Positions 319 through 22,305 of a stretch of 64,000 bases of DNA are shown here, piece by piece (position 1 is the first letter of the stretch; each line of letters begins with the position of its first letter). The stretch is from positions 68,758 through 132,757 of the forward strand of contig SVFI01000002.1 in NCBI GenBank assembly GCA_015056905.1, in the 5' to 3' direction. A model generated the notes under the pieces. That model saw nothing but the letters and a program-made list of their open reading frames with translations. It ran no database searches and was not told the DNA's origin. The DNA is from Lachnospiraceae bacterium (GTDB lineage: Bacteria; Bacillota; Clostridia; Lachnospirales; Lachnospiraceae). A program made the translations under genes and the position numbers.

Positions 319-1050
319 TTATGCCTTATAATTTTCAAGAAAGAAATTGAGCTCCTCCGGTGTCCCGAGCACATGCACCCTATCATAATCCACAATGGAG
401 ATGCGGACATCCCCTCCCTTGGAAATCAGATAGTTGTAGAGCGGTGCCACATACTTCTCGCCCTTCTCAAGTTTTTCTTCACTTGTATAATATTCATTGT
501 AAAGCTCTTCATAAAGACGACACGTCTTAAAATAGTATGCACCGAGCGTGCAATTATCGGAGATGCGTACTTTTTCACGCACTTCCACGACTTTTCCTCT
601 CTCATCAAGCTTTGCAAAGCTCCAGTGGTCGCCGTCTGCATGGAAACAAGGAATGAAACCGTCGCCTGCAATCTGCTCCGCCTTCATCTCATGCGCTTCC
701 ACATACGTGTCAATATTGTAAATCATAAGTGCAGAATCCGGATCCCAGACATCTTTGGCGAGCATCGCCGTCGTTGCCTGTCCGTCCGTCAGATAATCAA
801 TTCCGATGACTGTCACATTCGTAATCCCGATTTTTTCACAAGTACTGCGGATAAATCCTTCTGCCCCATCCTCCTTGCGAACAACAAAAATATAATCATT
901 TTCCGGGTTCTCAAACCCTTTCAGACTTTCCATGGACCACTCAAAAAGAGTTTTTCCGTGTGCCTCAATCTGATATTTCGGAACGGTATAACCCGCTTTT
1001 CTGAAACGGGAACCAAGTCCTGCCATTGTAATCAAAACCGTAAGTTTCAT
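319..1050 (-). CDS. Sugar-/alcohol-phosphate nucleotidyltransferase (LicC-like NTP-transferase fold)
   Basis: 243 aa. It has the N-terminal glycine-rich NTP loop ITMAGLGSRFRKAG, no TM segment, and the size and layout of small GT-A-fold nucleotidyltransferases found in capsule or teichoic-acid loci. Confidence 0.7.
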   Translation of the reverse strand: MKLTVLITMAGLGSRFRKAGYTVPKYQIEAHGKTLFEWSMESLKGFENPENDYIFVVRKEDGAEGFIRSTCEKIGITNVTVIGIDYLTDGQATTAMLAKDVWDPDSALMIYNIDTYVEAHEMKAEQIAGDGFIPCFHADGDHWSFAKLDERGKVVEVREKVRISDNCTLGAYYFKTCRLYEELYNEYYTSEEKLEKGEKYVAPLYNYLISKGGDVRISIVDYDRVHVLGTPEELNFFLENYKA

Positions 1051-1088
1051 CTCTCTGCCTCCGCTTATTTATTAAATCCACTTTTAAT

Positions 1089-1766
1089 TTAAATCGTTAT
1101 TTCTCCGTCATGCGCCATAAGGGATGCTCCGAACACTCCTTCCAGCTCCATCAGTTCTTTCAAGAGTTCCTGTTCTTTGTTTGTCTTGATATCCCAAATC
1201 ATATCCAAACTGTCCTTGCTGACATTGCGTGATTTTACCTTATTTCTCTTGGCATATTTGGAAACAACCGCCTTAATTTCCGGCTCATCGGAAATTCCTT
1301 TCGCGTTCACAATCAGAAGAACGCTCGCTTTTCCTGCCGGTGTAAGCTCCAGAACAAAGAGCCCGATGGTAATGATAAGCGACGAAATAATGGCAATCTT
1401 ATACATTTCCGCCCCGCAGATGATACCTGTGCTGATGGACCAGAACAAAAAGATAAGGTCCATCGGATCCTTGATTGCCGTACGGAAACGGACGATGGAA
1501 AGCGCACCGACCATACCGAGGGAAATCACAAGGTTCGACTGCATCGCCAAAATGATGCTCGCCGTGATGACTGCGATAAGCGCAAGCGAAATATTAAACG
1601 TCTTAGAATAATAATTTTTCTTGGCTGCCACATAGTACACAATGAAAATGTAGAGCGCAATCAGGCACGTCACGGTAAGTGTAACAAGAATACGCGCGGT
1701 CGTGATGTCACTTCCGCTAAATCCATCCAAAAATGATTTTTTAAAAATGTCCGAGAATGTGTTCAT
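1089..1766 (-). CDS. DUF4956-family polytopic membrane protein
   Basis: It has 4-5 hydrophobic helices, the signature LSIVRFRTAIKDPMDL and a soluble C-terminal domain of about 80 aa. The ORF-track start at 1787 is GTG. The first ATG (1766) has a GAGGAAAAAA RBS and forms an ATGA overlap with the upstream stop, so 1766 is preferred. Confidence 0.8.
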   Translation of the reverse strand: MNTFSDIFKKSFLDGFSGSDITTARILVTLTVTCLIALYIFIVYYVAAKKNYYSKTFNISLALIAVITASIILAMQSNLVISLGMVGALSIVRFRTAIKDPMDLIFLFWSISTGIICGAEMYKIAIISSLIITIGLFVLELTPAGKASVLLIVNAKGISDEPEIKAVVSKYAKRNKVKSRNVSKDSLDMIWDIKTNKEQELLKELMELEGVFGASLMAHDGEITI

Positions 1767-2461
1767 GCTTTTTTCCTCTTTCTGCACAAATAGTATTTTG
1801 AAAATGTAATCTGTCTCAAATGTCCGATATCGAGCCTTGCCTTGATGTGCACCGGCAAAAACTCGTCATATTTTACTTCCATCAGATGCACACCGACCGG
1901 AAGAATCGGTTCCTTGATCACATCTTTCTCAAAAAAATGTTTGAAATCAACCGAAGCTGCTATGTTCCTGTCAAAAGTTACCCTGACATTCCCTCGCGAA
2001 TCCACATAAGGAATGCGGTCATACACCACCATTACTTTCGGCTGCATATGGCGCGTTCGCATCAGCACAAGAAACTGTTGCAAAAGTTCCGGGTAAGCGG
2101 CAAAACTCTCCTCATCCATCGCAAGCGACTTTCCGTCAATTAGCGTCTCCGCCTGTTCTCTCGTAAGAGGGGCCGCGTACTTGCGCGTCCTGCCGTTTTG
2201 CTTGACCTTTTTCTCGAGCCGGATACTTGCGTCGGACGCATTATAAATGCGGATCCGGTACTTTGCTCTTGGGTCCGTTCCCGCCTCATTCTGATAATAG
2301 CATGTATCTGCGATATCATCAAAATATATGCTGCGGATATGGTACCCTCCCTGCTCCGTCACATGGGCATCCTTTTTCATGACGCCTTCGATACGGGCAC
2401 GCAGCAACGCAATATCCTTCTCGTCTGTCTGAAATTTATACTCATGTCTGCTTTTTTTCAT
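1763..2461 (-). CDS. VTC-domain protein (polyphosphate-polymerase-like triphosphate tunnel metalloenzyme fold)
   Basis: 232 aa with no signal peptide. It shows a tunnel-type charged-strand pattern: HEYKF (E7-x-K9), YRIRIY (R69-x-R71), RLEKKVK (81-87), RVTFD (160-164) and MEVKYDE (E195-x-K197). Its start overlaps the CotH stop by 4 nt. Confidence 0.8.
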   Translation of the reverse strand: MKKSRHEYKFQTDEKDIALLRARIEGVMKKDAHVTEQGGYHIRSIYFDDIADTCYYQNEAGTDPRAKYRIRIYNASDASIRLEKKVKQNGRTRKYAAPLTREQAETLIDGKSLAMDEESFAAYPELLQQFLVLMRTRHMQPKVMVVYDRIPYVDSRGNVRVTFDRNIAASVDFKHFFEKDVIKEPILPVGVHLMEVKYDEFLPVHIKARLDIGHLRQITFSKYYLCRKRKKA

Positions 2462-4071
2462 AAACCTTCCACGTAGGCATCCAGAAAGTCCAATCTTTTT
2501 GCCGTAAAATCTTTCATAAACGTAATGTCCGTATCAGCATTCCCCGCCGGCCAGCGCTCCATCTCACGCTCCATAGCCCCGGACATCACAAGCCTGTTCA
2601 TCAGCTGATCCATACGCCTGCAAACGCGCTCCGTGTCAAACGCCTCTTTCCTCCAGTCGCTCCACGTCTCCTTTACAAGGGCGCGCGATGCATCCACGTC
2701 AAGCTCCACAAGGCGTGTTCCCGGCTGAAATTGCACGATGGACTCCAGCTCTTTCATCGTTTCCATACAATAATATTCATTTTCCGCATACAGCGCTCCG
2801 AAGGAGATGTTCATATCCCACGGAATAAAATATCCGTAAGCCTCTGTATCTCTCTGACGCGATACGTAATACACATTCTTATTTTCGTTGTCAAATCCTG
2901 CAATCGCCTGAAAAAACAACCAATTATCGAGAATATTCGAAACATCCGCCAGCGTTCCGATTTCGGCAGCAAATGTCTCATCGCCTGCTTCCATACACGC
3001 AGCCATCTGCCTGAGAGGCTCCCATTCCTCTTCATTTCCGAGGACTGCATCTCCTTTCAGATAAAAGCCACCCCGATAATCCTGCTGGTTTGCATCCGGC
3101 AGAGGTCCTGTAAAATACTCTTCCAGCCACGCGGCAGAATATTTCTTTTTGTAAATGCGCTCAATCACATCCTCCCCCGCAGTTATCTGTGCGGAAACGC
3201 TGTCCGTTCCGACCTGTTTGCGGTCAATCGGGTGTGTGAGCAGGTAAAGTCCGGCGTACCCGCCGTTGATAATCACTTCCACATACTCTCCGGTCACGCC
3301 GAAATTTTTGCCGTATGGGTTCTTATTTGCGCCTGTTTCCTGCCAAAGTTCCATAGCAAGCTTATCGCGAATTCTCGAATTATCCGCATACAGGCTGTTT
3401 AAAATCCAGTCGTCATCGTCCCTGATGCCGAGCAGATTTTTATTTGATTTTTTATAACTGCCATCGTCCTTCTGCTCTTTCAGTTTCAGACGAAGACTCT
3501 TTTTTTCATAATTTAAGCTCGTGTTCCCGCGAAGCGTGCTCGTCGTAAGAGCCGTCGTAACCCAGTCATCGGAATGCTCCGTCTCATACAGGGACATCTC
3601 AAACAAAATCTCCCCGTTTTCCGTCACCTGCTCTGTGCCCCAAAAGGCGAGCACCGGAAGGCCGGTCAGTTTCAAATAGCATTTCTCATAGCCGCTTTCT
3701 GACACTGCATAAAACGCAATGGCACGATTCTGCGAAAGCAAAGAAACTTTATCCTCCCGCGTAAAATCCTCCGCGAACAGAATTTCGACTCCGTTTGTCG
3801 CCTCAAAGCTGCCCTGTTCCCACGTTTCCGTCTCCATGGAAACCGGAAGAAAAAAAGTTTTGCCGGCAGAATCATAAGCAAGTGCTTCTCCGGCAAATTT
3901 CAGGTCAAACTCCATTGGTTCTGACTGCCGAACCAGCTTCTCTTCAATTTTTTGAGCTCTGTCCTGACTGATAACCCGTATATCCGGCCCCTGCTTCTCC
4001 AAAAAAAGAATACAGACCAGACTTACCGCAAGCAGAACCGCTCCACTCAGTGCAAGCAGCCATTTTCTCAT
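2458..4071 (-). CDS. CotH-family atypical protein kinase, N-terminally membrane-anchored or secreted
   Basis: 537 aa. The N-terminal signal/anchor is MRKWLLALSGAVLLAVSLVCILF. CotH-like blocks include DDWILNSLYADNSRIRDKLAMELW, GLYLLTHPIDRKQ and YFIPWDMNISFG. Confidence 0.85.
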   Translation of the reverse strand: MRKWLLALSGAVLLAVSLVCILFLEKQGPDIRVISQDRAQKIEEKLVRQSEPMEFDLKFAGEALAYDSAGKTFFLPVSMETETWEQGSFEATNGVEILFAEDFTREDKVSLLSQNRAIAFYAVSESGYEKCYLKLTGLPVLAFWGTEQVTENGEILFEMSLYETEHSDDWVTTALTTSTLRGNTSLNYEKKSLRLKLKEQKDDGSYKKSNKNLLGIRDDDDWILNSLYADNSRIRDKLAMELWQETGANKNPYGKNFGVTGEYVEVIINGGYAGLYLLTHPIDRKQVGTDSVSAQITAGEDVIERIYKKKYSAAWLEEYFTGPLPDANQQDYRGGFYLKGDAVLGNEEEWEPLRQMAACMEAGDETFAAEIGTLADVSNILDNWLFFQAIAGFDNENKNVYYVSRQRDTEAYGYFIPWDMNISFGALYAENEYYCMETMKELESIVQFQPGTRLVELDVDASRALVKETWSDWRKEAFDTERVCRRMDQLMNRLVMSGAMEREMERWPAGNADTDITFMKDFTAKRLDFLDAYVEGL

Positions 4072-4074
4072 TCT

Positions 4075-4473
4075 TTACTCCTCTGTGCAGCGACTTCCTT
4101 TGCAAAGTGCATCCATCTCATCCACCGTGCATTTGAGGAACTCATCCGGGCGGATGGTTCGGTCGTCCACATAAAATCCTTTATGTCCCGGCCATGGTTT
4201 TCCATACACAATTTCATCGTACGGAATCTCCCATTTATCAAGCCACGCAAGCAATACCTTTGCCGTATTGGCATTAATCATACCGATATTGCCGCCGTAG
4301 CTGTTCATGTTACGGGATGTAAAAAGCACAATTTTCGCGCCGCCGTCTTTATATTCACGAATTTTTGCAACCATTTCAGGAAATGGTACCAAATCGATAT
4401 ACTCCTGGTCTTTTCTCTTGATTGGACAGATTGTTCCGTCGATATCGAAACAAAATGTTAATTCTTTGTACAT
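4075..4473 (-). CDS. Small HAD-superfamily phosphatase-like protein
   Basis: 132 aa. HAD motif I is FCFDIDGTIC (DxDGT). A motif II-like FTSR and a C-terminal YVDD are also present. It overlaps the upstream kinase-like gene by 16 nt. Confidence 0.7.
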   Translation of the reverse strand: MYKELTFCFDIDGTICPIKRKDQEYIDLVPFPEMVAKIREYKDGGAKIVLFTSRNMNSYGGNIGMINANTAKVLLAWLDKWEIPYDEIVYGKPWPGHKGFYVDDRTIRPDEFLKCTVDEMDALCKGSRCTEE

Positions 4474-5912
4474 GCTTCAACCTCCTCCAAAATGCGAATT
4501 GCGTTCAAGATGAAACCGAATACTTTTCCCGGCTGATCCATATGATACGGAAGCATGGAGAGGAAGAGACTCGCTTCATATAAACGTACTTTTGTATAGC
4601 TGTAACCGCTTTCTTCAAGATATTTCTTAAAAATATCCACATACGGCTGTGAGTCCGCATCAATGGAAAGCTTGATTTTCATATCGCGGTCCATCGTAAT
4701 CTGGTACAAGCCGCTGTTAAAGAAATCGTAACATCCGCAGATGGAGTGAGAAAGTTTTGCCAGATCATAATACGGGTCCGTGTAAAGGTCATCCTCCGCC
4801 AGTGCCCCTTTCGGGTCAATGAGCTTTAACAGATTCGCCTCACGGCTGTATAAAATATTAGAAAAACAAAGGTCTCCGTGTCCAACCACAAGTTTCTTAT
4901 CTTTTTCCGGATACGCCTTCGTTACCTTTTCATATAAACCGATGTAATGCTCCACAATCTTTTCGATGCTGTCATACTTCGTTCCCATGGCAATTAAAGC
5001 ATCAAACTGTGCATACTCAGGAAGTTTTTTTAAATCTTCCATGCGCTGCGCGAGTTTCTTCAGATACAATTCGTCTGCCACTTCCTTCGCAACAATTGTA
5101 TCCACAGGTTTGCTCTTACGCAGCTGTAAAAAATAAAACAGCTTATCAAGAATCTCTGAAAGTTCTTCGCAGCTGACGGCCCCATGCACAAAACGAATGG
5201 CAATATCCGTCATATGGAAACGCTCCATCGTATAGGAAGCACTTTCCTTATCTTCCTTGTAATCATATGGCATCACAAACCACATCTTCATATTTTCCGG
5301 CAATAGATAGTAGAAATTATATTCTGATTTAATTTTCTCTATTTTTGTCGAGCGTTTTGTCACGGTGTATTCATCACCTGCAAGCGCGTTGAAAAACCGC
5401 GCATCAAATCCGCTTGTGATGAACGTCAGAAAATTGCCGAGCACCGAAAGATTCATAAACGCCTCTGTCTCAATACGGTCACCGGTCATCTTTCTCTCAC
5501 GAAGCGCATCCAATTGTGCAATGCATGTTTTTACATCCGGCAGAAGAACCGCTGCGGTCTCTTCGCCGTTTCCGGCTACAAATACATCGTTAATATAGCA
5601 GGCTTTCGTCAAAAGTCCCTGAAACTCTCCGGTATCAGCCAAACCATAGTTGGAATAGAAATATACAACTGCTGTATTCTCATAAGAATCGGCACCGGAA
5701 ATTAAATCTGCCTTTAATTTGTCTGTCTCTTTTTCTTCTTCAAAATCAAGCATCGTCAAAACAGCTTTGTTTTTGGAAACTTCTTCTTTTATACGATTCT
5801 TCAAAGTAACGCGCTTAAAAATAGTCTCCCCGTAAGACTTGTCACCTGTAATCGTCCGTATCTCTTTATTTGGTTTTAGGCTGTCATCATATACAACTAT
5901 TACTTTTTTCAT
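4458..5912 (-). CDS. Two-domain protein with a C-terminal APH/choline-kinase-fold phosphotransferase
   Basis: 484 aa. The catalytic loop is VVGHGDLCFSNILY (HGDxxxxN), followed by LKLIDPKG as the metal-binding Asp. The N-terminal region of about 180 aa has no motif I recognise. Confidence 0.7.
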   Translation of the reverse strand: MKKVIVVYDDSLKPNKEIRTITGDKSYGETIFKRVTLKNRIKEEVSKNKAVLTMLDFEEEKETDKLKADLISGADSYENTAVVYFYSNYGLADTGEFQGLLTKACYINDVFVAGNGEETAAVLLPDVKTCIAQLDALRERKMTGDRIETEAFMNLSVLGNFLTFITSGFDARFFNALAGDEYTVTKRSTKIEKIKSEYNFYYLLPENMKMWFVMPYDYKEDKESASYTMERFHMTDIAIRFVHGAVSCEELSEILDKLFYFLQLRKSKPVDTIVAKEVADELYLKKLAQRMEDLKKLPEYAQFDALIAMGTKYDSIEKIVEHYIGLYEKVTKAYPEKDKKLVVGHGDLCFSNILYSREANLLKLIDPKGALAEDDLYTDPYYDLAKLSHSICGCYDFFNSGLYQITMDRDMKIKLSIDADSQPYVDIFKKYLEESGYSYTKVRLYEASLFLSMLPYHMDQPGKVFGFILNAIRILEEVEACTKN

Positions 5913-6676
5913 GATTTACCCTTCCTCATTCTCGCACACAGCGCAATCACATAACCAATGACGGTCAGGCACAAAAATGCAAGCGCTGTTGTTCCCGTGT
6001 ACATTGTCAGAATCTGACTTTTCCCGTTCATAAAAATCGCTTCTATGTACGAAGCAAAATCCCCTAACCCGAATGATAATCCCTTGTATGACGCAAGCGC
6101 CTTGAGCGTCACAACTTCACTTGCCCATCCGAGCAGAGATGCAAAAACAATCAACGTCGACCTTCCGGTAATGAGATTCCTGGTGAAATCATACCATTTC
6201 TTTACGATATCAAGACCGCCGAGTGCGGCCAAAGAACGCGAAGATGTTTTTTTCATAATCAGATAGCGGTTTAAGTATGAATAACTTGACGGTACCGCCA
6301 TATATAGGAGTGCCACAACTACAATCATCACGAAAAAGACAACCGTAATCGGTGACAACTCTCTGCGAAAAAACAAATCAAACGGCAAAAGCACCATAAA
6401 AAGTGCCAGCATATCAAAATACCGGTCGACCAAAACACTGAGAAGTCCGACCTGCCAGACCTTCGTCTCACGTGCGATTTCCTCCACACGATACACTTCT
6501 CCGAGCTTAAAAGGAATTATTAAGTTGATAAAGGTTGTCCGAAAATACAGCAGAACAAACCGGCCAAAAGAAATCTTATGCTCCATAAGCACCAGATACA
6601 GCCGCGCCATTTTAAACAAATGTACTGCCACAAATCCAAGGACAATTAATAGCGTCCACCAAATCATTAAAAACAC
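5909..6676 (-). CDS. Polytopic membrane protein, UPF0104 / LPG-synthase-TM ('flippase-like') family candidate
   Basis: 255 aa with about 8 hydrophobic helices. It sits immediately downstream of a DPM1-like GT2, which is the usual partner of this family. The family call comes from gestalt and context only. Confidence 0.5.
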   Translation of the reverse strand: MFLMIWWTLLIVLGFVAVHLFKMARLYLVLMEHKISFGRFVLLYFRTTFINLIIPFKLGEVYRVEEIARETKVWQVGLLSVLVDRYFDMLALFMVLLPFDLFFRRELSPITVVFFVMIVVVALLYMAVPSSYSYLNRYLIMKKTSSRSLAALGGLDIVKKWYDFTRNLITGRSTLIVFASLLGWASEVVTLKALASYKGLSFGLGDFASYIEAIFMNGKSQILTMYTGTTALAFLCLTVIGYVIALCARMRKGKS

Positions 6677-6679
6677 CTG

Positions 6680-7474
6680 TTATTCTTCTATTTTCGTTAT
6701 CTGCTGACAAGTGTAACCCTCGCGGGCAACTTCTCTGTATTCCTGCTTGATTACTTCGTTGTTAAACATATAGGAAAATGCCATTTTGAGAACATTAATT
6801 GCCTGATTCATCATCTTCACATTGGAAACCTGATCCTCTTCTCTCCATGAAACCGGATAAAAGATGATGTCATGCTTATAATAATGCGAAGCAAGTATCA
6901 TAACATAATTGAACATTAAATTGTCCGGGAATTTTTCGAAGAAGCCATCCTCCAGCATCTTTGTACTATACATATTCAGTCCGCTTCCCAAATCGAAAAT
7001 TCTCTGTTTTGTAATAAAAGCAAAGATAAAATCGTACACGATATTTCCGAAAGTACGGAACGCGGAATACCCCTGCAGTCTGGAACCTTTCATAAAACGG
7101 GCACCGAGGACACAGTCATGCTTTCTGTAAATTTTCTTTTCCAGCATCGGTATAAAATCATGGATATCTCCCTGGTCATCGCCGTGCAGCATACACACAT
7201 AATCATAACCATGGTCTACCGCATAATGGAATGCCATTTTCTGTGAACCGCCGAGACCGTAATTTTCATCGTTGCGCATCAGTTTTACAGGAAGAGACGG
7301 ATTCTCTTTCAAATATTCAAGCACCGCTTTCTCCGTATCATCCGTACTTCTGTTGTTGACAACCAAAATTTCCTCAAAATACGGAAGTACCTCCTCATCG
7401 AGCTGCGCAAGCACACGCACAATCTGCTTTTCACAGTTGTATGCCGGGATAAATAACATCATCTTTTTGTCCAT
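6680..7474 (-). CDS. Glycosyltransferase family 2 (DPM1/polyprenyl-phosphate sugar synthase-like)
   Basis: Motifs are LFIPAYNCEKQI, VVNNRSTDDT, NYGLGGSQK and the DxD-like HGDD. The protein is 264 aa with no TM segment. Confidence 0.8.
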   Translation of the reverse strand: MDKKMMLFIPAYNCEKQIVRVLAQLDEEVLPYFEEILVVNNRSTDDTEKAVLEYLKENPSLPVKLMRNDENYGLGGSQKMAFHYAVDHGYDYVCMLHGDDQGDIHDFIPMLEKKIYRKHDCVLGARFMKGSRLQGYSAFRTFGNIVYDFIFAFITKQRIFDLGSGLNMYSTKMLEDGFFEKFPDNLMFNYVMILASHYYKHDIIFYPVSWREEDQVSNVKMMNQAINVLKMAFSYMFNNEVIKQEYREVAREGYTCQQITKIEE

Positions 7475-7477
7475 ACC

Positions 7478-7933
7478 TTAACCCTCTTTCTGTTCCAAAA
7501 ACTTTTTACGGGTAATAAAATTATAAACCATCACGATACCGGTTGCAAAGAACTTCGCTCCCGCCGTCGCAAGCGTCGGTGAGAGGAAGCTGTTAAGCCA
7601 CAGCCAGTTTTCGTAAATGACATCTATGCAAAGCATAATGATCACTTCGTGAATTCCAAGTCCGATGAGACTGAGAATCGTGAAAATGATAAATTCTTTC
7701 CGCCGATCCATCTCCTCTTTTCGTACAAACACAAACTTCATAGAGAGAAGATAGTTGATAATGACAGATATTGTAAAACCGAAAAAGGCACCAATCAGCG
7801 CTGCCGTCCCTGTCTCCATGCCCGCCTGCGAGCGCAGCAGACCGGAAACCACCATGGTAATGACAAAGTCAATCAAAAAGCAGACAACGCCGACCACACC
7901 GAATTTCATAATTTGTTCCATCAGTTTATTCAT
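7478..7933 (-). CDS. GtrA/GtcA-family small membrane protein
   Basis: It has four helices and the motifs FGVVGVVCFLIDF and KFVF.R...........KF. The ATG at 7933 has an AAGGAG RBS 11 nt upstream. The longer ORF-track start would overlap the upstream gene. Confidence 0.8.
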   Translation of the reverse strand: MNKLMEQIMKFGVVGVVCFLIDFVITMVVSGLLRSQAGMETGTAALIGAFFGFTISVIINYLLSMKFVFVRKEEMDRRKEFIIFTILSLIGLGIHEVIIMLCIDVIYENWLWLNSFLSPTLATAGAKFFATGIVMVYNFITRKKFLEQKEG

Positions 7934-7952
7934 GCCTGATTGTTCTCCTTGT

Positions 7953-9683
7953 TTATACTTCAGGAATTGCTGCAATGAGAGCATCCTTCAAAGCCGCAAG
8001 TTTTTCATCCGCATCTGCAAGGGACTCTCCCTTAATACCCATGTAGAATTTAATCTTCGGCTCTGTTCCGGAAGGACGTGCGCAGCACCATGAATCATTT
8101 TCAAGGTCGAAATACAGCACGTTCGACTTCGGAAGTCCTGTCTCAGACTTCTCACCTGTCACCATATCCGTCACTACATTTACATCGTAGTCACGCACTT
8201 TAAGCACTTTCAGTCCTGCAAGCTCCTTCATCGGATTTGCACGAAGCGCAGCCATAATATCTTTGATTGCCTGAGCTCCTGTCACACCTTTCATCGTGAT
8301 CGTGTGAAGTCCCTCTTTAAAGTATCCGTACTCTTCGTATACTTTAATCATCTGATCCCAAAGCGTAATACCGTTTTTCTTGCAGTATGCAGCCACTTCG
8401 CAGAGGCACATAACCGCAACGATAGCGTCTTTATCTCTTGCATGTGTTCCCGCAAGACATCCGTAGCTTTCTTCCAGACCGAACACATAGTTGTATGTGT
8501 TGTTTTCTTCGAACCACTTAATCTGTTCTCCGATATATTTGAATCCTGTCAGAACTTCCATCTGTGTCACGCCATATGCCTTTGTAATCACATCAGACAT
8601 ATTCGTTGTAACGATTGTTTTTACAAGGGCAGGATTTTCAGGCATTGTTCCTGTCGCTTTCTTCTCGCGGAGAAGATATTCAGCGATAAGCATACCTGAC
8701 ATGTTTCCTGTGAACGGAACATATTCGCCGCTCTTTGTATCAAGCGCATACACACCGAGACGGTCCGCATCCGGGTCTGTTGCAAGAATGATGTCTGCGT
8801 CGACCTCTTTTGCAAGCTTAATCGCAAGCTCAAATGCAGCCGGATCTTCCGGGTTCGGATATGCGAGTGTTGTAAAGTTCGGGTCCGGCATTTCCTGTTC
8901 CGCAACAACATATACGTTCTTAAATCCAAGCTCGGAAAGAATACGTTTTACCGGCACAAGACCTGTTCCGTTGAACGGTGAGTACACAATCTTAAGCTCG
9001 TCAGATACCTCATCAATGATATCCTGGTGTACAATCTGTTTTTTAAGTTCCACCATGTACGCGTCGTCAATTTCTTTTCCGATGATAGTGAGAAGTCCGT
9101 CTGCTTTGGCTTTTTCCTCATCCATCGTTTTAACTGCATGGAAATCTGTTACTGCCTTTACTTCCTCAATAATCTCAACATCCTTCGGCGATGTTACCTG
9201 TGCACCGTCTGCCCAGTATACTTTGTAGCCGTTGTACTCAGGCGGATTGTGGCTGGCAGTCACAACGATACCTGCGGTACATCCAAGCTTACGGACTGCA
9301 AATGAAAGTTCCGGTGTCGGACGAAGCGCGTCGAACAAATATGCTTTAATTCCGTTTGCACACAGGCAGAGAGCAGCTTCTTTTGCAAATTCAGGTGAGA
9401 AACGTCTTGAATCATATGCAATCGCAACACCCATATCAGCGCTTCCCTGTTTTAAAATATAGTTGGCAAGTCCCTGTGTTGCTTTACGTACCGTATAAAA
9501 ATTCATACGGTTTGTACCTGCACCGATGACACCTCTAAGTCCACCGGTACCAAACTCAAGGTCTTTATAAAATCTGTCTTCTACCTCGGCCTCATCATTA
9601 CGAATCGCGAGAAGTTCCTTTTTGGTTTCCTGATCGAAATAATCATCTTCCAACCAGAATTCAAACATTTCTTTGTAGCTCAT
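7953..9683 (-). CDS. pgcA: Alpha-phosphoglucomutase / phosphomannomutase
   Basis: The active-site block is TASHNPPEYNGYKVY and the metal loop is ATDPDADRLG. The length is about 576 aa. The ATG at 9683 has an AGGAGG RBS 10 nt upstream. Confidence 0.9.
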   Translation of the reverse strand: MSYKEMFEFWLEDDYFDQETKKELLAIRNDEAEVEDRFYKDLEFGTGGLRGVIGAGTNRMNFYTVRKATQGLANYILKQGSADMGVAIAYDSRRFSPEFAKEAALCLCANGIKAYLFDALRPTPELSFAVRKLGCTAGIVVTASHNPPEYNGYKVYWADGAQVTSPKDVEIIEEVKAVTDFHAVKTMDEEKAKADGLLTIIGKEIDDAYMVELKKQIVHQDIIDEVSDELKIVYSPFNGTGLVPVKRILSELGFKNVYVVAEQEMPDPNFTTLAYPNPEDPAAFELAIKLAKEVDADIILATDPDADRLGVYALDTKSGEYVPFTGNMSGMLIAEYLLREKKATGTMPENPALVKTIVTTNMSDVITKAYGVTQMEVLTGFKYIGEQIKWFEENNTYNYVFGLEESYGCLAGTHARDKDAIVAVMCLCEVAAYCKKNGITLWDQMIKVYEEYGYFKEGLHTITMKGVTGAQAIKDIMAALRANPMKELAGLKVLKVRDYDVNVVTDMVTGEKSETGLPKSNVLYFDLENDSWCCARPSGTEPKIKFYMGIKGESLADADEKLAALKDALIAAIPEV

Positions 9684-9731
9684 CTTTTCATATCCTCCTA
9701 TTTCTAAACATAATTGCATTGTTTACAGTTT

Positions 9732-11734: not shown

Positions 11735-13609
11735 TTACTCCTCTTTGTTTCCTTTGAGCATGCGAAGAGGTTTGGTTACCTTCCAGCTCGCGCTGTTTTT
11801 CAAATCGCGAATCTGCTGCTCTCTGTTGTCTATAATAAATCGCATGTCTGCTATCGTTGTCTTTATCTCTCGAATCGCCGCCTCCGACATGGAGATCTCT
11901 TCCACACTGATTTCGGCGCCGTCATCTTCTTGTGCAAAACCGCTTACGGTTAGCTGCGGCAAACAATTCTCATACAAATACAAAAGGCCACCCAGATGCA
12001 TTCCGTCTGTCTCCACCGACAAGCCAACGTGATTTCCTCCGCGGTCTGCCATCGCACCGAGCCTGAGCACCTTCGCCTCGCCTTCTTCGGATGCATCAAA
12101 ACCTGTCAACTCCACTTTGATACCGTTTTCTGACTTCGGCAATTTGTACACATAGGTATTTTCCTTCGCGCGACCTGCGTCTACTCGGCTGCGCTGTCCG
12201 CCTTCTCCCACAAGCGTGACATATCTGTCGTCAAGCCCTCTGAGACGGTCCGCAAGCTCCCCGGCGGTAAGCACCGGCTTACCTTCCTCATCGAAACTGT
12301 TACAAAGCACCTTTGCTCCGTGCTGCACCCAGTGCTGGAAGTTTGTCTCCATCGCAAGGAAAATTTCTTTCATTTCCTCTGTAATACCGGCTTTTTGATA
12401 CACTTCCGAAAACTGCCCCTGCATCGCAGGATTTCTGTTTTTGGCTTCCAAATAAAAATACAGAAAACGGAACACCAGAAATTCCACCGGTATCGGAAAC
12501 TCAAATGTCCACTCATAATCTATTACAACTGCTTTTTCGGAAAGCAGTATGTTCTGGCTGACCAAATCAATATCACTGACCGGAAGAGACCTCCAACCGT
12601 ACTGCTGCCACTTCGGAACATCACCGAACATTTCCGCAAATGCTTCCGTCATTTCAAACGAAGCAAGCTCTTTGCCGGAACTTAATCTCTCACAGAACGA
12701 AAGCAGCACCTGCTCTGCCTCCTGACACTTCCCATCCGCAAGCATCTCATCGAGCACCTGCTCCAGGCTCTTACCTTCTGCATATGCAAACCGCACGATC
12801 CCCGACGCCTCGTCGACTTCCGTCATCTCGTTGAGTACACACTCTCTGCCGAGCAGGGAAATATCTTTCAAAGTACCCGCCAAAGTTTCTTTCACATCTC
12901 TCATCCGAAGCACATGTGTTTTTGCCTCAGGAGTCACGGCACTTTTTTGCACAGAGTCATCATATAAATCCGTGCGTATCTGCGCCTGCATCCGTCTCTC
13001 ATTGGAAAATCTCGTATAATTCGGATATCCTTCGAGTGTTTCCGGAGAAATCACAAGCATATACGCATGCGCCAGATACGGATACATACCGTCTGACGCA
13101 ATGCGTCCGGTTACCTCGCGCTCATCGAACACTTCCAGACAGGCGCGTTCAAAATTGTAATAATTATCCTCGCACTCTCCCGGTCCCGGAAGGCGGTTGT
13201 CAGAATAAAATGCCACCGGAAAAGACACGGACGGGTACGGATAATACCATCTGTAGTGCACTTCCCGTTTTCCCCTCAGCTCTTCAAGCTGTCTTTTCAG
13301 AAAATCATATCCGATTCCGTTTCCTATCGCATCCACATTTCCGGTTGCAAATGCGTGTACACTAACCGGATTATCAAAATACAGAATCAGTTTACCGCCA
13401 GCAGCGAGCCGGTCGAATAAAACTTCTGCTGAAACACCGGATATTCTGTCGACAAGCGGATTCCAGAAAATAAAATCAAACTTTATATCATCGGAACTCT
13501 CAAAAGTCTGCTGCGTAGTCAGCTCAAGAACACGGGCATCATCCGCTATGTGAAAAAATCGTTTTAAATTTCCGGCGCGGTTCGTACGCATAGTCTCCTC
13601 CTGTTCCAT
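11735..13609 (-). CDS. WbdD-like chain-terminator/regulator candidate: degenerate methyltransferase-like N-domain, kinase-like core and C-terminal coiled coil
   Basis: 624 aa. The catalytic-loop-like segment is SDIDLVSQNILLSEKAVVIDYEW (DxxxxN...D, nt 12512-12574). The N-terminal Rossmann-like segment ARVLELTTQQ lacks a GxGxG motif. The C-terminus is ...REQQIRDLKNSASWKVTKPLRML. The gene lies between the ABC ATPase and the polymerase. Confidence 0.5.
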   Translation of the reverse strand: MEQEETMRTNRAGNLKRFFHIADDARVLELTTQQTFESSDDIKFDFIFWNPLVDRISGVSAEVLFDRLAAGGKLILYFDNPVSVHAFATGNVDAIGNGIGYDFLKRQLEELRGKREVHYRWYYPYPSVSFPVAFYSDNRLPGPGECEDNYYNFERACLEVFDEREVTGRIASDGMYPYLAHAYMLVISPETLEGYPNYTRFSNERRMQAQIRTDLYDDSVQKSAVTPEAKTHVLRMRDVKETLAGTLKDISLLGRECVLNEMTEVDEASGIVRFAYAEGKSLEQVLDEMLADGKCQEAEQVLLSFCERLSSGKELASFEMTEAFAEMFGDVPKWQQYGWRSLPVSDIDLVSQNILLSEKAVVIDYEWTFEFPIPVEFLVFRFLYFYLEAKNRNPAMQGQFSEVYQKAGITEEMKEIFLAMETNFQHWVQHGAKVLCNSFDEEGKPVLTAGELADRLRGLDDRYVTLVGEGGQRSRVDAGRAKENTYVYKLPKSENGIKVELTGFDASEEGEAKVLRLGAMADRGGNHVGLSVETDGMHLGGLLYLYENCLPQLTVSGFAQEDDGAEISVEEISMSEAAIREIKTTIADMRFIIDNREQQIRDLKNSASWKVTKPLRMLKGNKEE

Positions 13610-17632: not shown

Positions 17633-18700
17633 TTACATCAAATATATGCCAAACAGCATCATTTCCGGCACACAGCACAGTATCGCCGGAATCATTTTTT
17701 TCCAGTTTTTATTCACAAGACAGGCTGCCAGCGTCTGGCAACCGAGCATAAACGGTCCTAAAAACAGCCCCGTCTCACCCATAAACGTACAGGCCAGGAG
17801 AACACACGCCACCAAAACCCAGGATTTCAGCCGCTCCCATTTCCCGTCTTTTCGTTTCTCCGAAAAAAGCGCTTCCTGACCGCTCATCCACAGCATCGGA
17901 ATCCCGATCGCCACAAACAGTGCTTTTCCCTGCCAGATACGCGTCACCAGGAAATTTTCCGGACTGAACACGAAATAATTGCCGACCATATGGAGAAGCG
18001 CAAAAGCGAACAAAAATTTTCCCTGCGCACCTATCATTCCTTCTTTTTCAAGAAATCTTTTCCCGAGCCCATAAAAAAGTCCGTATGCCAAAGGCATATA
18101 AAACAGAGGAAACAGATTGTGTGAAATCACAAGATGATGCATCCCCGAAAAGAGGGAGAGCATCGCCTGATAGACCGGCAGTGCCGATACCATGTAGCGC
18201 CTGCTGATTCCGCTTGCCATAAGTCCGCCGTACGCATCACGCTCCAAAAGCCAGTCGTAAGAAAGACTCATGGAGGATAATCCGGAATAGAACGCATCAT
18301 CCTTATCCGGCGTCGCCATATACAAAATCGCGCCTATCTGAACGGCAATGAGCAAAAACGCTGCCATCATATAGCCGTCCGGCCTGCCCGGAAGATAGTG
18401 TCTAAAACCTTTTTTCGGACTCTTTTTCCATGCAAAAAGCAGACGGATAAGTCCTGCAGCTGCAAGAGGAAGCACAAGCGCCAGATACGCGTTACTGACT
18501 GCGCGAAATCCCTTTCCCATCTGTCCGAGCCAAAAAACAAGCAACTCAAAAAGCGCATAAGATACCATCAGACCGGAAGCAGTCACATAAAACACTCCCG
18601 TCCGATTTATCTGCTCCTTCTTTCCGAAAAACAGACATCCTATCAGATACGGAATCACACACATATGAACAAAAACCAAAATACTCTGCAGTATTACCAT
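17633..18700 (-). CDS. Polytopic membrane protein, GT-C-like candidate (function unknown)
   Basis: 355 aa with 9 or more hydrophobic helices. An acidic first-loop segment reads ATPDKDDAFYSG. Its architecture resembles the 19563-20552 product. Confidence 0.55.
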   Translation of the reverse strand: MVILQSILVFVHMCVIPYLIGCLFFGKKEQINRTGVFYVTASGLMVSYALFELLVFWLGQMGKGFRAVSNAYLALVLPLAAAGLIRLLFAWKKSPKKGFRHYLPGRPDGYMMAAFLLIAVQIGAILYMATPDKDDAFYSGLSSMSLSYDWLLERDAYGGLMASGISRRYMVSALPVYQAMLSLFSGMHHLVISHNLFPLFYMPLAYGLFYGLGKRFLEKEGMIGAQGKFLFAFALLHMVGNYFVFSPENFLVTRIWQGKALFVAIGIPMLWMSGQEALFSEKRKDGKWERLKSWVLVACVLLACTFMGETGLFLGPFMLGCQTLAACLVNKNWKKMIPAILCCVPEMMLFGIYLM

Positions 18701-18705
18701 GCTGT

Positions 18706-19572
18706 TTATCCTTCCTGTTTATAAAACAAAAGCATTGTCTCCGTTCTTCCCACCGGTTCATAACCGAGCGCGGAAAATCGCGAGACAGCATCAAACCCGT
18801 CCTCGCCGAAATATGTCTCAAAATCTTCAAACTGCTTTGCCGGATCATACAAAATCACATATTCGCATCCGGTTTCCGGAAACAAATACGGAAGCCCCGC
18901 CAGCGCATCCAGCTGGTCTCCGATATTGATTGATGTCCCGTTGTCCACATCGTATCTTGCATATCCCTGATGCATTGTCTGCAGAGCCTGGCTGTAACGC
19001 TCCGGATTTTCTTTCATATCTTTACCGTAAATCGGAGTAAAATCATCATCATAAAGACGGCATTTCGCCATCATCTCATCCATACCCCAAATGCGAACAT
19101 CCTCGTCGCCGCGTCCCTTTGCATGATCCAAAATCAAATCAAACGCTTCTGCCTCCCGGCGACTGCTCTCCGCCGCCCATTCCGGCGTAACCGTCGGAAC
19201 ATACGCAAAATCTCCGGCTGCGACAAGCAGTACAAAAAACGCAACCAACAAGACAATACCTCGCCGTTTTCCTTCTTTTTCTGCCATTTGAACAGCCACG
19301 GTCCCCGCCAGAACCAAAATCGGTACAACGAGCTGTGCATAACTGATTTCGTAGTACGTCGCAAGTGCCGGAAATCGTTCTGCCGTCAAAGCATATGTCA
19401 GCGGGCAGAGGAACACAAGGTAGGAAACGATTCCGTAGACTGCCGTAAACAAAAGTTTCTTTCCGCTTTGCTCATTTTTCATCCGGCAGCATACAAAAAG
19501 AAAAAAGACAGCGACCAGAAATATGCCCCAGTATTTATCTTCCATCTTCATAAAAAGCAGAGTTATGTCCAT
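18706..19572 (-). CDS. Membrane protein with a C-terminal soluble (probably extracytoplasmic) domain, function unknown
   Basis: The preferred start is ATG 19572 (MDITLLF...), with GAGGAGG 8 nt upstream. The longer ORF-track N-terminus overlaps the upstream gene by about 175 nt. The protein has 4-5 helices followed by a soluble domain of about 150 aa. Confidence 0.55.
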   Translation of the reverse strand: MDITLLFMKMEDKYWGIFLVAVFFLFVCCRMKNEQSGKKLLFTAVYGIVSYLVFLCPLTYALTAERFPALATYYEISYAQLVVPILVLAGTVAVQMAEKEGKRRGIVLLVAFFVLLVAAGDFAYVPTVTPEWAAESSRREAEAFDLILDHAKGRGDEDVRIWGMDEMMAKCRLYDDDFTPIYGKDMKENPERYSQALQTMHQGYARYDVDNGTSINIGDQLDALAGLPYLFPETGCEYVILYDPAKQFEDFETYFGEDGFDAVSRFSALGYEPVGRTETMLLFYKQEG

Positions 19573-20552
19573 GTCGACTTCCTCCTCTCTGCCACAGTAA
19601 AAATCAGCTTCGTCAGCACAAGGCAAACGACTGCCACCGCAAAAATCACGCCGCATTTTACCAGACCGCCAAGACACAGCGCATTTACGACCACAAGTGC
19701 AGTCACAAACCAATTCGCGCGTGAAACAACACTCCATGCTGCCAGCGGAATCAGAACACTCGAGAACACCGTCATCGCTTCATACGGATACTGTAACAAC
19801 CCGTAAGAGGTGTTCATATAAGCGGCATTTCCGCAAATCGTAACAAGAGCAAACAGCAAAAGTGCCGTCCCTCTCATTTTTTTCTCGTTTCCGAAAAACG
19901 CATCCGCCCAGAGGGCAATCACACAAAATGCCTGCAAAAGCACAAGAAACGGAATGACGTCAAACAGTACTGCTGCCGGTGTCAGTCCCGTCCATTTGCA
20001 CAGACAGGCATAAAAAAGAGGAAGATAGTCCGTGCTCAGCGTCTGCTCGACGTCCGTCACCGCACTTTCCCCCGTCCATATATTCACATCAGACAAACGC
20101 CCGCTGTCAAGCATCGTCACAACGCGCTCCGGCGTATCAAATCCAAGCTCCATCGGGAACGGCCGCATCACGTAAATGCACGCCACCAAAAGGAAGGCAC
20201 ACATGACACAAAGCTCCGCTTTGCCCGGTTTCTTCAGGCACTTGGCAAACTGCACCTTTACATAAGCACGATACCCGCGCCACAGGGCAAATGCCACGGC
20301 ACAAGCCAGAAGAAGCGCAACGCTCATCATCAACATGAGTTTCGCAGACTTCTCAAACAAAACCCCCGCATAGTTGCACACAAACGAAAGCATTCCAATC
20401 AATGCCCCGTACAAAAGGCATCCGTAGAGATATGTCTCTCTCAGCGTCCTTTTGTCTTTCCCTGCTCTCAAGCCCGCACCCGGCAGACTTCCGACAAGCA
20501 CCGGAAAAACAATCGATATGCAAATCAAAAGCACAATTTTTATACTCTCCAT
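19563..20552 (-). CDS. Polytopic membrane protein, GT-C-like candidate (function unknown)
   Basis: 329 aa with about 9 helices. The loop segment is RPFPMELGFDTPERV. It appears to be a paralogue of the 17633-18700 product. Confidence 0.55.
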   Translation of the reverse strand: MESIKIVLLICISIVFPVLVGSLPGAGLRAGKDKRTLRETYLYGCLLYGALIGMLSFVCNYAGVLFEKSAKLMLMMSVALLLACAVAFALWRGYRAYVKVQFAKCLKKPGKAELCVMCAFLLVACIYVMRPFPMELGFDTPERVVTMLDSGRLSDVNIWTGESAVTDVEQTLSTDYLPLFYACLCKWTGLTPAAVLFDVIPFLVLLQAFCVIALWADAFFGNEKKMRGTALLLFALVTICGNAAYMNTSYGLLQYPYEAMTVFSSVLIPLAAWSVVSRANWFVTALVVVNALCLGGLVKCGVIFAVAVVCLVLTKLIFTVAERRKSTWT

Positions 20553-20556
20553 GCAG

Positions 20557-22305
20557 TTACCTTTCTCTTGTATACACTGTCACTGCCGGCTCCATCACAG
20601 CCGCATCGACATCAAAGTATGTTTCCATAAATGATTTCATCGGCTCTGTCGTAAGAACCTGCGAAAAATCCGCGCCGTACTCCCTGTCCACAAAGACAAC
20701 CGTAGGAATCCGCTCCGGATTCTTCTCATAGTAATACACCAGTTGTTCTCCGAACGCCGGCGTCGAAATCGTATTACCCGTAGCTATGCCGGATTGTTCC
20801 AACTGACTGTACAAATACATGTCTGCGCCGACATAAAGGAGCATATCCCCATCTTTTACGTACTTGTCAACAAGCCCCGTTTTGGCTTCATACTGAATAT
20901 AGTCAAAATCACCAAGTCGAATCCCTTTCAGGACATCGTGTGTCACTTCATAATACGGTTCGAAAATGTTCTTTTTGCGGGTGGATGTAAAACGCACCAG
21001 GAAGATTCTTGCCACGAGAAGCTGGGACATGATGCACACGAGCAGCAAAATTGCCATCCACGCATAGGAACGTCTTTTCCCGGCGCCGCTTTCCTTCTTT
21101 TGTGTCTCCTTCGGCTCTTCCATGTCACGCGCATACACACGATAAATCTGCCACGTCCCAAGTATTACCCCCGGCATAAAATAGCTCATGGAATACGAGG
21201 TCAGCACATTGGAAGAAACCATAATCGCAAACACACTGACTACCGTCAGCGGAAAGCACACTTCAAAAAATAACGTATCCGTCTTATCCTTCGGAAAGGA
21301 TGCATACGCATACCACTCGACAACAAAAAGTTGCAGTATTACCGGATAAAAAATCATAAAATTCACATCGGAAATTGTGTGAAACTGATAAATCGCATAT
21401 ACTGCCGTCACAAGCAACAACACGCCCAAAAACAACGCATCTGTCTTTTTCTTTTTACAAAATACCGGACGACCCACATGGCAGAGCACAATGAGCGCCA
21501 GCACAAGATACAACATCTCCCAAATACCTTTCAGATGCACAAGAAGATGAGCTGCCATATCCTGGTCATGCGATGCATCCATCAAAATCGCCGATATATT
21601 TTCAAAAATTCCGATTCCACCGCCCGAAATAAGTAGATAACCAACAAACAAAACACCGCAGGCAGCACATATTCCCGCAAAGATTGCTGCGGCCTTTTTG
21701 CCGAAATCATCTTTTCTGAATAACATCCACAGCACCGCGTAGACAAACAACATCACTGCGCTCGGATAGCAGAGTACAATGACACTCATACTGATTCCCG
21801 CCCCAATCATCCATCCTGTTTTCCGCTTTTTTGCAAAGCGAAGCAGGCAAAGCATAAGGCTCATAAAAGCCCAGTAAAACAAAATCGAAAATTCCGGTGA
21901 CTGTATGTGTTTCGGTGTGAAATTAAAGTAGGCAAACGAGAGCGTCATCGCAAGCCACGCAGGCATATGCGACCGAATCGTACGATACAAAAACAGACTG
22001 ACTCTCGTCTGCACAACCAGTCCGCAGATGCGCATAAAAACAAGAGCACCCTCCATCGAACCGGTGATGCCCTTATAACATGCGACCAGCGGCGCATATA
22101 AAACGGCAGACATCTGATGCGGCTCCCACATCTCAAGCAGCATACGGTCGCCCGAAGCGATTCTCACTGCCATCGTAAGTGCGTAAGACTCATCGATATC
22201 TGCGCTAAAATATATGGTTTTCCAAATCCCAATAACAGACAGAACACTAAGCACAACAAACAACATACCTGTCAAAAGGGATTTTCTGCTTTTTTCCTTC
22301 TGCAT
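20557..22305 (-). CDS. Large polytopic GT-C-type (ArnT/PMT-like) glycosyltransferase candidate with a C-terminal soluble domain
   Basis: 582 aa. The first-loop acidic motif is SADIDESYAL, followed by about 11 helices. The soluble C-terminal domain of about 150 aa begins RKKNIFEPYYEV... Confidence 0.6.
   Translation of the reverse strand: MQKEKSRKSLLTGMLFVVLSVLSVIGIWKTIYFSADIDESYALTMAVRIASGDRMLLEMWEPHQMSAVLYAPLVACYKGITGSMEGALVFMRICGLVVQTRVSLFLYRTIRSHMPAWLAMTLSFAYFNFTPKHIQSPEFSILFYWAFMSLMLCLLRFAKKRKTGWMIGAGISMSVIVLCYPSAVMLFVYAVLWMLFRKDDFGKKAAAIFAGICAACGVLFVGYLLISGGGIGIFENISAILMDASHDQDMAAHLLVHLKGIWEMLYLVLALIVLCHVGRPVFCKKKKTDALFLGVLLLVTAVYAIYQFHTISDVNFMIFYPVILQLFVVEWYAYASFPKDKTDTLFFEVCFPLTVVSVFAIMVSSNVLTSYSMSYFMPGVILGTWQIYRVYARDMEEPKETQKKESGAGKRRSYAWMAILLLVCIMSQLLVARIFLVRFTSTRKKNIFEPYYEVTHDVLKGIRLGDFDYIQYEAKTGLVDKYVKDGDMLLYVGADMYLYSQLEQSGIATGNTISTPAFGEQLVYYYEKNPERIPTVVFVDREYGADFSQVLTTEPMKSFMETYFDVDAAVMEPAVTVYTRER

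Follow-up and report, generated by a model that had tools for sequence, protein, structure and literature searches.

A conserved VTC-like protein and DUF4956 gene pair, frequently accompanied by a CotH kinase gene, in a wall-polysaccharide operon of a Lachnospiraceae bacterium

A stretch of 64,000 nucleotides from contig SVFI01000002.1 of a Lachnospiraceae bacterium (GenBank assembly GCA_015056905.1, positions 68,758 to 132,757, here called the window) was found to carry three contiguous genes, all on the minus strand, for a CotH-family kinase, a Vtc4-like protein and a membrane protein of the DUF4956 family. The CotH gene (2458..4071) encodes a product of 537 aa that matches PF08757 across residues 180-530 (E=1.1e-34). 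It is followed by the gene (1763..2461) for a 232 aa stand-alone protein with a triphosphate-tunnel (VTC) domain, predicted to be cytoplasmic, which matches PF09359 at E=1.4e-39 (136.5 bits, where the cut-off is 23 bits; the match spans positions 2-229 of the 235 in the model). The third gene (1089..1766) encodes a DUF4956 protein (PF16316, E=9e-14) with an MgtC-like five-helix part and a C-terminal ACT-like domain; its open reading frame (ORF) is listed as 1089..1787, and the ATG at 1766 gives a product of 225 aa that is identical to database protein P0121. NCBIfam holds a model for none of the three proteins, and the genomes nearest to the locus are uncultured Lachnospiraceae/Kineothrix. The gene order and the families had been named in an earlier reading made from the sequence alone, here called the sequence-only reading, and are borne out by the ORFs and Pfam matches.

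Both junctions of the trio are 4 nt ATGA overlaps, read directly from the sequence, of the CotH stop with the VTC start (2458..2461) and of the VTC stop with the DUF4956 start (1763..1766), and a Shine-Dalgarno-like purine run is found upstream of the VTC start and of the DUF4956 start. Independent gene calls on metagenome contigs with identical proteins gave the same three products, lengths and overlaps, the CotH-VTC junction being the same on independent contigs. The three genes had been described as fused by these overlaps. Both overlaps are present, but 3 nt gaps and overlaps of 4 or 16 nt occur throughout the operon at 319-9719, in which a search for an intergenic terminator disclosed no convincing one. 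As the whole run is so densely packed, the ATGA overlaps mark one long operon; a feature peculiar to the trio, or a unique fusion, was rejected, and the overlaps denote operon membership and possible translational coupling.

The distribution of the trio was assessed with a 25-sequence alignment of the VTC family (A1), which in a pattern scan over 185,579 species genomes gave more than 583 loci; the counts reported hereafter are from the best 80. CotH genes were counted with an iterated CotH hidden Markov model and Pfam spot checks, the count from single-sequence phmmer being too low. DUF4956 is encoded immediately downstream of VTC in 79 of the 80 loci, and the VTC-DUF4956 junction is overlapping in 26 of 76 (20 of them by 4 nt) and either overlapping or no longer than 30 nt in 59 of 76. 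A CotH gene was present in 65 of the 80 loci, within 500 nt of the pair in 63 of these, and in 53 of the 61 loci (87%) having at least 3 kb on both flanks. It lies upstream of the pair on the same strand in 48 loci, downstream on the same strand in 9 and on the opposite strand in 8. The loci were found in Lachnospiraceae, Oscillospiraceae, Ruminococcus, Treponema and Bacteroidales/Muribaculum, as well as in Paratractidigestivibacter and Solobacterium (Coriobacteriia, Erysipelotrichales), and the trio also occurs on RefSeq plasmids of Pseudobutyrivibrio and Planococcus, where the Prokaryotic Genome Annotation Pipeline (PGAP) labels the products 'CotH kinase family protein', 'polyphosphate polymerase domain-containing protein' and 'DUF4956 domain-containing protein'.

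The co-occurrence of the three families, which had been put forward in the sequence-only reading, is thus strong, and the trio is almost certainly a real functional module. VTC and DUF4956 form its invariant core, and CotH is a frequent but not an obligatory partner, which modifies the three-gene unit originally proposed. Genes recurring nearby encode glycosyltransferase family 2 (GT2) proteins (27 loci), Bac_transf priming transferases (23), LytR-CpsA-Psr proteins (20), ABC ATPases (16), GtrA (13), phosphomutases (12) and purple-acid-phosphatase-like metallophosphoesterases (7). Two further arrangements were seen: three tandem CotH paralogues upstream of a single VTC-DUF4956 pair (L075:2368-7996), and two complete CotH-VTC-DUF4956 sets in inverted orientation (L043:253-7282).

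The VTC protein contains no hydrophobic segment (maximum Kyte-Doolittle hydropathy 0.78) and hence no transmembrane segment, as expected of a protein said to have no export signal. The AlphaFold2 (AF2) model based on A1 has a predicted local distance difference test score (pLDDT) of 92.5. When it was compared with the PDB using Foldseek, the top 13 matches were all tunnel domains of yeast Vtc4, Vtc3 and Vtc2 (E=7e-14 to 5e-10), with a TM-score for Vtc4 of 0.76 at E=7e-14 and up to 0.77. The first match outside the VTC proteins, the CYTH/triphosphate tunnel metalloenzyme (TTM) hydrolase YgiF, followed at E=1.5e-7, six orders of magnitude worse.

The charged residues E7-x-K9, R69-x-R71, E83-K-K and E195-x-K197, taken in the sequence-only reading as the tunnel pattern of a TTM, are all at the positions claimed. 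HMMER profile alignment to Vtc4 (3g3q/8i6v; numbering from the 8i6v chain, the match starting at residue 196) paired R5 with R196, K9 with K200, R69 with R264, R71 with R266, E83 with E279, K85 with K281, K94 with K294, Y147 with Y359, R149 with R361 and R160 with R373. HMMER did not align the C-terminal part, for which fungal Vtc4 fragments were recovered. Here HLMEVKYDEF...ITFSKYY of the window protein (E195, K197, S221, K222) resembles YGILEVKLQTQ...VPKFSKF of fungal Vtc4 (E426, K428, S457, K458), with 26 residues from Glu to Ser against 31 in the fungal protein (E426 to S457). Comparison by hhalign paired LMEVKY with ILEVKL, weakly (E=0.06) and over the LEVK strand only, a profile of the C-terminal third had no match in the PDB at E up to 10, and MAFFT mis-aligned the C-terminus across a eukaryotic insertion. 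As both HMMER and MAFFT failed in this region, the equivalence of E195, S221 and K222 to E426, S457 and K458 is proposed at the level of motif, order and fold, and not of a residue-level structural alignment.

In the cryo-EM study of VTC (10.1101/2023.01.27.525886) the triphosphate ligands are K200, R264, R266, K281, Y359, R361, S457 and K458, E426 is a ligand of Mn2+, mutation of these residues abolishes polyphosphate (polyP) synthesis in yeast, and K458 is the sole position that differs in the inactive Vtc2/3 from the active Vtc4. Retention of the Vtc4 catalytic residues was a check set beforehand, and equivalents of all of them were found, the C-terminal ones at motif level. They are invariant: K9, R69, R71, K85, Y147 and R149, and also E195, K197, S221 and K222, occur in 80/80 loci, and 17 tunnel residues are 100% conserved in the 80 genomes, with or without CotH nearby, in proteins having 44-84% overall identity to the window protein. 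By these comparisons the window protein appears to be a TTM enzyme with a complete Vtc4 active site, and it probably has polyP polymerase activity.

Clustered at 50% identity, the VTC family falls into 1,010 clusters if E<=1e-30 is required and into 4,155 at E<=1e-10, nearly all of its members being stand-alone proteins of ~230 aa. The best 150 representatives were searched for fusions of VTC with DUF4956 or with CotH and contained none, and the only longer forms carry basic disordered N-terminal extensions. In three of the longer proteins (P0494, P0502 and P0504) the extension of 190-260 residues is extremely rich in Lys, Arg, Pro and Ala, apparently disordered and without Pfam match; it is a candidate polyanion-binding tail joined to a putative polymerase.

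The DUF4956 protein had been credited with 4-5 transmembrane helices and a conserved basic loop. Five hydrophobic or helical segments were found between residues 23 and 141 (1344..1700, minus strand), from hydropathy and from the AF2 model, in which the helices span residues 23-50, 55-74, 78-95, 101-118 and 122-141. The loop R93-F-R95-T-A-I-K99-D-P-M-D103 (S90-D103 = SIVRFRTAIKDPMD) is where it had been placed, and is predicted to be cytoplasmic. Counting of positive charges puts the N-terminus outside and the loop at 48-57 (+3), the loop at 92-104 (VRFRTAIKDPMDL) and the ACT domain in the cytoplasm, so that the invariant basic loop is predicted to face the compartment of the VTC enzyme. Q76, S90, R93, R95, T96, K99, P101, D103 and W109 are invariant in 79/79 loci, and DUF4956 is better conserved than VTC (mean column identity 75%). 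A physical complex of the two proteins is fairly likely.

Residues 149-218 (1113..1322, minus strand) form an ACT-like beta-alpha-beta-beta-alpha-beta domain in the AF2 model (pLDDT 75-82), for which the best Foldseek matches were the ACT domains 2ko1 and 3ibw (E about 2e-3). The model as a whole has pLDDT 62, with 50-60 in the membrane part, and Foldseek was informative for the ACT-like domain only. The window protein matches MgtC (PF02308) below threshold, at 15.8 bits (E=0.018) against a 31.4-bit cut-off; in a permissive scan 29 of 30 proteins of the family gave sub-threshold MgtC matches, the best of them, at E=8.8e-5, covering positions 28-116 of the 121 in the model, and some members are annotated 'YhiD' by the Joint Genome Institute (JGI). 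None of the 30 proteins matched DUF202/Vtc1 even at E up to 10, and DUF4956 as a Vtc1 homologue was rejected on these two results.

In the CotH protein a signal-anchor helix of 19 hydrophobic residues (LLALSGAVLLAVSLVCILF), at residues 5-23 after MRK (4003..4059, minus strand; Kyte-Doolittle 19-mer score 2.76), is the sole hydrophobic segment. This confirms the anchor foreseen by the sequence-only reading. Of 63 full-length CotH neighbours, 62 have such an N-terminus, as against a hydrophobic segment in 1 of 81 VTC proteins. CotH is thus predicted to be a type II membrane-anchored protein with its catalytic domain outside the membrane, and the proposed arrangement of kinase outside and polymerase inside is, as a prediction, conserved across the family. 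Of the computational outcomes named beforehand as refuting the sequence-only reading, none was seen. The window CotH had no match in the PDB by phmmer; a profile of 28 diverse family members matched B. cereus CotH 5jd9 (E=7e-22), and D394 and D419, the only invariant Asp residues in the 28, align with the aspartates of the B. cereus FDG and WDYD motifs. They correspond to D228 and D251 of B. subtilis, mutation of which inactivates the CotH kinase (PMC7821199). The catalytic Asp pair and the Lys of the ATP-dependent Bacillus enzyme are thus kept. The CotH partners frequently contain surface-type domains (Fn3_assoc, CHB_HEX_C, LTD, InlB B-repeat), and the context of the window protein is an N-terminal signal anchor and a wall-polysaccharide operon, not the spore coat or sporulation.

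A purple-acid-phosphatase-like gene stands beside CotH in 7 of the 80 loci (e.g. L013, L034 and L042). In L053 (4790-6139, minus strand) it is on the strand opposite to CotH and its product has a lipoprotein-type signal peptide (MKKQHLFLLAAILLLTLPSGC); a protein of this type could be an exported phosphatase or polyphosphatase counterpart of the CotH kinase.

In the window the trio is part of an ABC-transporter-dependent wall-polysaccharide operon, all on the minus strand, with the order phosphomutase, GtrA, GT2, LPG_synthase_TM, kinase-like, HAD, CotH, VTC, DUF4956 and NDP-sugar pyrophosphorylase. The genes preceding CotH encode a phosphogluco/mannomutase (7953-9719), GtrA (7478-7984), a GT2 (6680-7474), a flippase-like LPG_synthase_TM protein (5909-6676), a 484 aa kinase-like protein (4458-5912; APH/choline-kinase-like, with no match in the PDB by phmmer) and an EcbF/BcbF-type HAD phosphatase (4075-4473, from Pfam/NCBIfam scans), and downstream of DUF4956 is a 243 aa NDP-sugar pyrophosphorylase (319..1050; PDB 4evw, E=5e-43). 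The set of kinase, phosphatase and nucleotidyltransferase resembles the logic of the GDP-heptose pathway, and its product may be an activated sugar used in extracytoplasmic decoration. Longer contigs show the operon extending further, through genes for a 536 aa protein, GT2, GT2, Bac_transf, LytR-CpsA-Psr and GT2. The ten-gene order is shared by 9 of the 80 genomes (L001-L005, L007, L010, L011, L015), and is also found in L083-88 and in a very abundant gut species.

Upstream of the operon are genes for a double-GT2 protein, a Wzt/Wzm ABC transporter, two DUF6077 proteins and a GH25 muramidase. The DUF6077 proteins, two paralogues of 355 and 329 aa, are encoded between the Wzm/Wzt genes and the muramidase gene. 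Genes for three large proteins without Pfam match (624, 343 and 582 aa) are located there too or directly downstream of the transporter genes; together with the DUF6077 genes they cover 11735-13609, 17633-20552 and 20557-22305 and are components of this same wall-polysaccharide locus. Glycopolymer genes of a second set are plentiful in 23605-63557, with two TagF-like glycerophosphotransferases, LicD, an IspD-like cytidylyltransferase, YfhO, a pyruvyl transferase, dTDP/GDP-sugar enzymes, an amidase and a GBS Bsp-like repeat protein. Across the window (1-64000) GC skew is negative in every 2 kb bin and the long ORFs are almost all encoded by the minus strand. This strong strand bias over all 64 kb agrees with what leading-strand gene orientation in Bacillota would give.

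The gene set itself has already been described and is routinely annotated. The genes cotH-PPP-DUF4956, with DUF4832 or a diguanylate cyclase/phosphodiesterase (DGC/PDE), are known as accessory genes that adjoin the pel operons (pelDEADAFG) of Gram-positive streptococci, clostridia and bifidobacteria (Whitfield et al., 10.1101/768473). For Streptococcus intermedius (SIR_1594-1592) the predictions were a secreted CotH, a cytoplasmic VTC-like protein with catalytic residues, and an MgtC-like DUF4956 protein with 4-5 transmembrane segments and an ACT domain (PMC12345266). Deletion of CotH and of DUF4956 each reduced aggregation in sputum medium (PMC12345266), and these changes, together with those in Pel, are an experimental hint for the module. 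The statement that no functional characterisation was known is therefore nearly right, the S. intermedius phenotypes being mild and inconsistent, but it missed a trio described in 2019-2025.

The authors of the S. intermedius study did not find the three-gene synteny outside pel loci (PMC12345266). A restriction to pel loci is contradicted by the window and by most of the 80 loci, which have no pel genes among the neighbours examined, these being other polysaccharide genes or unrelated genes. No Pel or DUF4832 family was among the Pfam matches listed for the window ORFs (for 23.6-63.6 kb, the top 25 of 34 families) or for the extended contig, nor among the ten most frequent unlabelled neighbour clusters of the 80 loci. 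The trio as a pel-specific module was rejected, as non-pel polysaccharide loci carry it; the module is associated with surface-polysaccharide loci generally, and what is new here is this genomic context outside pel.

The simplest account of three products that stay together, and the one rated best, is that membrane-associated polyP synthesis is functionally tied to extracytoplasmic CotH chemistry, a reading that in this broad form is tentative and falls somewhat short of probable. In its favour are the likeness of the VTC protein to active Vtc4, the gene linkage, the conserved predicted topology, with which the scheme agrees, the surface-type domains and polysaccharide neighbours, the phosphatase gene flanking CotH and the S. 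intermedius changes. Docked on DUF4956, the VTC-like enzyme would synthesise polyP from ATP on the inner side of the membrane, and DUF4956 would pass the chain to the outer face or else gate or regulate the polymerase, and the product would serve extracytoplasmic phosphate chemistry by CotH on wall polysaccharide or wall proteins. The individual steps differ in likelihood: that polyP reaches the outside is doubtful, and it is improbable that CotH uses it as phosphoryl donor. The full proposal of a third bacterial route to polyP, of VTC type, in which the synthase and an MgtC-like protein form a translocon powering CotH outside, has an equally small chance of being right.

A number of observations weigh against this account. 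There is no homology for a channel: judged by profile matches and predicted fold, DUF4956 is a distant MgtC/SapB/YhiD-like domain joined to an ACT-like domain, unrelated to the yeast VTC channel, the sequence-only reading having suggested it as the membrane partner that takes polyP from the VTC domain. Characterised members of the MgtC family are regulators, not channels (PMC12345266), and as the membrane part is poorly modelled (pLDDT 50-60), no pore is claimed for DUF4956. On the side of the enzyme, E7 is an invariant Glu where Vtc4 has Thr and forms part of the ExExK motif of hydrolytic TTMs, the equivalents of E426, S457 and K458 are motif-level, and literature searches turned up no biochemical evidence that a bacterial VTC-like protein makes polyP. 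In S. intermedius, deletion of CotH lowered Pel and that of DUF4956 raised it (PMC12345266), while deletion of the VTC gene had no phenotype, aggregation included (PMC12345266); opposite effects of the first two and a silent third fit poorly to a simple linear pathway. Last, 8 of the 61 complete loci lack CotH. In five Lachnospiraceae loci (L006, L008, L009, L012, L017), four of them among these 8 and one, L006, with a short flank, phosphomutase-GtrA-VTC-DUF4956 is retained and CotH is gone. The genes for GT2, LPG_synthase_TM, the 484 aa kinase-like protein, HAD and pyrophosphorylase are present or absent as a block with CotH when L001-L005, L007, L010, L011 and L015 are compared with these five, and as CotH is lost together with sugar-decoration genes while VTC-DUF4956 stays, it may belong functionally to that block.

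Many of the same observations favour a regulatory arrangement, which is possible at rather low confidence. The TTM product would stay in the cytoplasm, DUF4956 would sense a ligand through its ACT domain and tune the polymerase, the local supply and use of ATP or phosphate, or the machinery for polysaccharide, and CotH would be an ordinary ATP-dependent kinase, loosely linked, acting on secreted or wall proteins. MgtC works by binding other membrane proteins such as the F1Fo ATPase and PhoR (as cited in PMC12345266), and the MgtC-like and ACT-like domains of DUF4956, the S. intermedius deletions (PMC12345266), the loci without CotH (8/61), the co-variation of CotH with sugar-decoration genes in Lachnospiraceae and the Asp pair and Lys that CotH shares with the ATP-dependent Bacillus enzyme are all consistent with it. 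It leaves unexplained why a cytoplasmic polyP enzyme stands beside an exported kinase in 53 of 61 loci from several phyla, why the genes track surface-polysaccharide loci, and where an extracellular Gram-positive kinase would find its ATP.

A different chemistry for the VTC-like protein is improbable. It would then be a hydrolase or cyclase of the TTM type (a tripolyphosphatase, polyphosphatase, NTPase or adenylate cyclase), and phosphoanhydrides at the membrane might be cleared by it or serve it for signalling; most characterised TTM/CYTH enzymes are hydrolases (PMC4641920, PMC8233210). The invariant E7, by which the ExExK metal-binding motif missing from Vtc4 is partly restored, and the lack of an SPX domain and of a Vtc1-type channel point the same way. 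The Pfam match, however, is to VTC and not to CYTH, the structure is far closer to Vtc4 than to YgiF, CyaB-like or ThTPase proteins, and the full Vtc4 residue set is invariant, including the equivalent of K458 that the inactive Vtc2/3 are without.

Export of polyP with no link to the kinase, as an anionic wall polymer for cation binding or teichoic-acid-like charge, with an unrelated CotH substrate, is very unlikely. It would suit the persistence of VTC-DUF4956 without CotH in the five Lachnospiraceae wall-polysaccharide loci, and the adjoining LytR-CpsA-Psr ligase and priming transferase genes, but it depends on the same predicted export step as synthesis tied to CotH and leaves the 87% CotH adjacency unexplained. 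The idea that three unrelated genes lie together by chance or for purely structural reasons, compatible with the overlapping starts and stops common across the operon, is refuted by the neighbourhood statistics, the pair being adjacent in 79/80 loci and CotH present in 65/80 across Lachnospiraceae, Oscillospiraceae, Treponema, Bacteroidales, Coriobacteriia, Erysipelotrichales and Planococcus plasmids with varying gene order and strand, and has next to no probability left.

If polyP synthesis is indeed tied to CotH chemistry, bacteria would possess a polyP synthase family beyond PPK1 and PPK2, common in gut and rumen anaerobes, and the MgtC superfamily would gain a concrete molecular partner. 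It would also explain how a kinase outside the membrane is powered, and phosphorylation there energised, without ATP. The invariant VTC-DUF4956 core, the conserved predicted topology and the general association with polysaccharide loci give a sharper hypothesis and better model loci, including those of abundant human-gut Lachnospiraceae.

Among known systems, C. perfringens NELoc-2, compared through the literature alone, combines VTC-like and CotH genes with those for a glycosyltransferase and a HEAT-repeat protein, a composition shared by the Planococcus plasmid locus L082, and it differs from the window in lying on a pathogenicity locus/plasmid. Bacillus CotH (5jd9/5jda) has in common with the window protein the Pfam CotH domain, the Asp pair (D228/D251 equivalents) and the Lys; the window CotH has in addition a membrane anchor at its N-terminus and a further domain of some 150 residues, and belongs to a vegetative cell-envelope operon and not to sporulation, ATP outside the cell being questionable. 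In the MgtC/SapB/YhiD proteins, as in DUF4956, a cytoplasmic ACT-like domain comes after five membrane helices (predicted for DUF4956, with low AF2 confidence in the membrane part), whereas DUF4956 is below the Pfam cut-off, forms its own family and has an obligate VTC-like pairing that is not known for MgtC.

The pel-linked cotH-PPP-DUF4956 genes are of the same three families, contiguous on one strand and in an exopolysaccharide context. The window has no pel genes or DUF4832 hydrolase among the listed matches, its trio is within a wall-polysaccharide operon with GtrA, GT2, kinase, HAD and pyrophosphorylase genes, and its CotH is without the C-terminal FN3 domain. In comparison with the yeast VTC complex, the 232 aa window protein consists of the VTC domain only, with no SPX domain, is not fused to transmembrane helices and has the extra invariant E7, and its membrane partner is MgtC-like with an ACT domain and not a DUF202/Vtc1 three-helix subunit. 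The two systems have in common the Pfam domain and the tunnel fold, the equivalents of K200, R264, R266, K281, Y359, R361, E426, S457 and K458, and a soluble catalytic domain that has to act at a membrane, beside a dedicated small multi-helix membrane protein.

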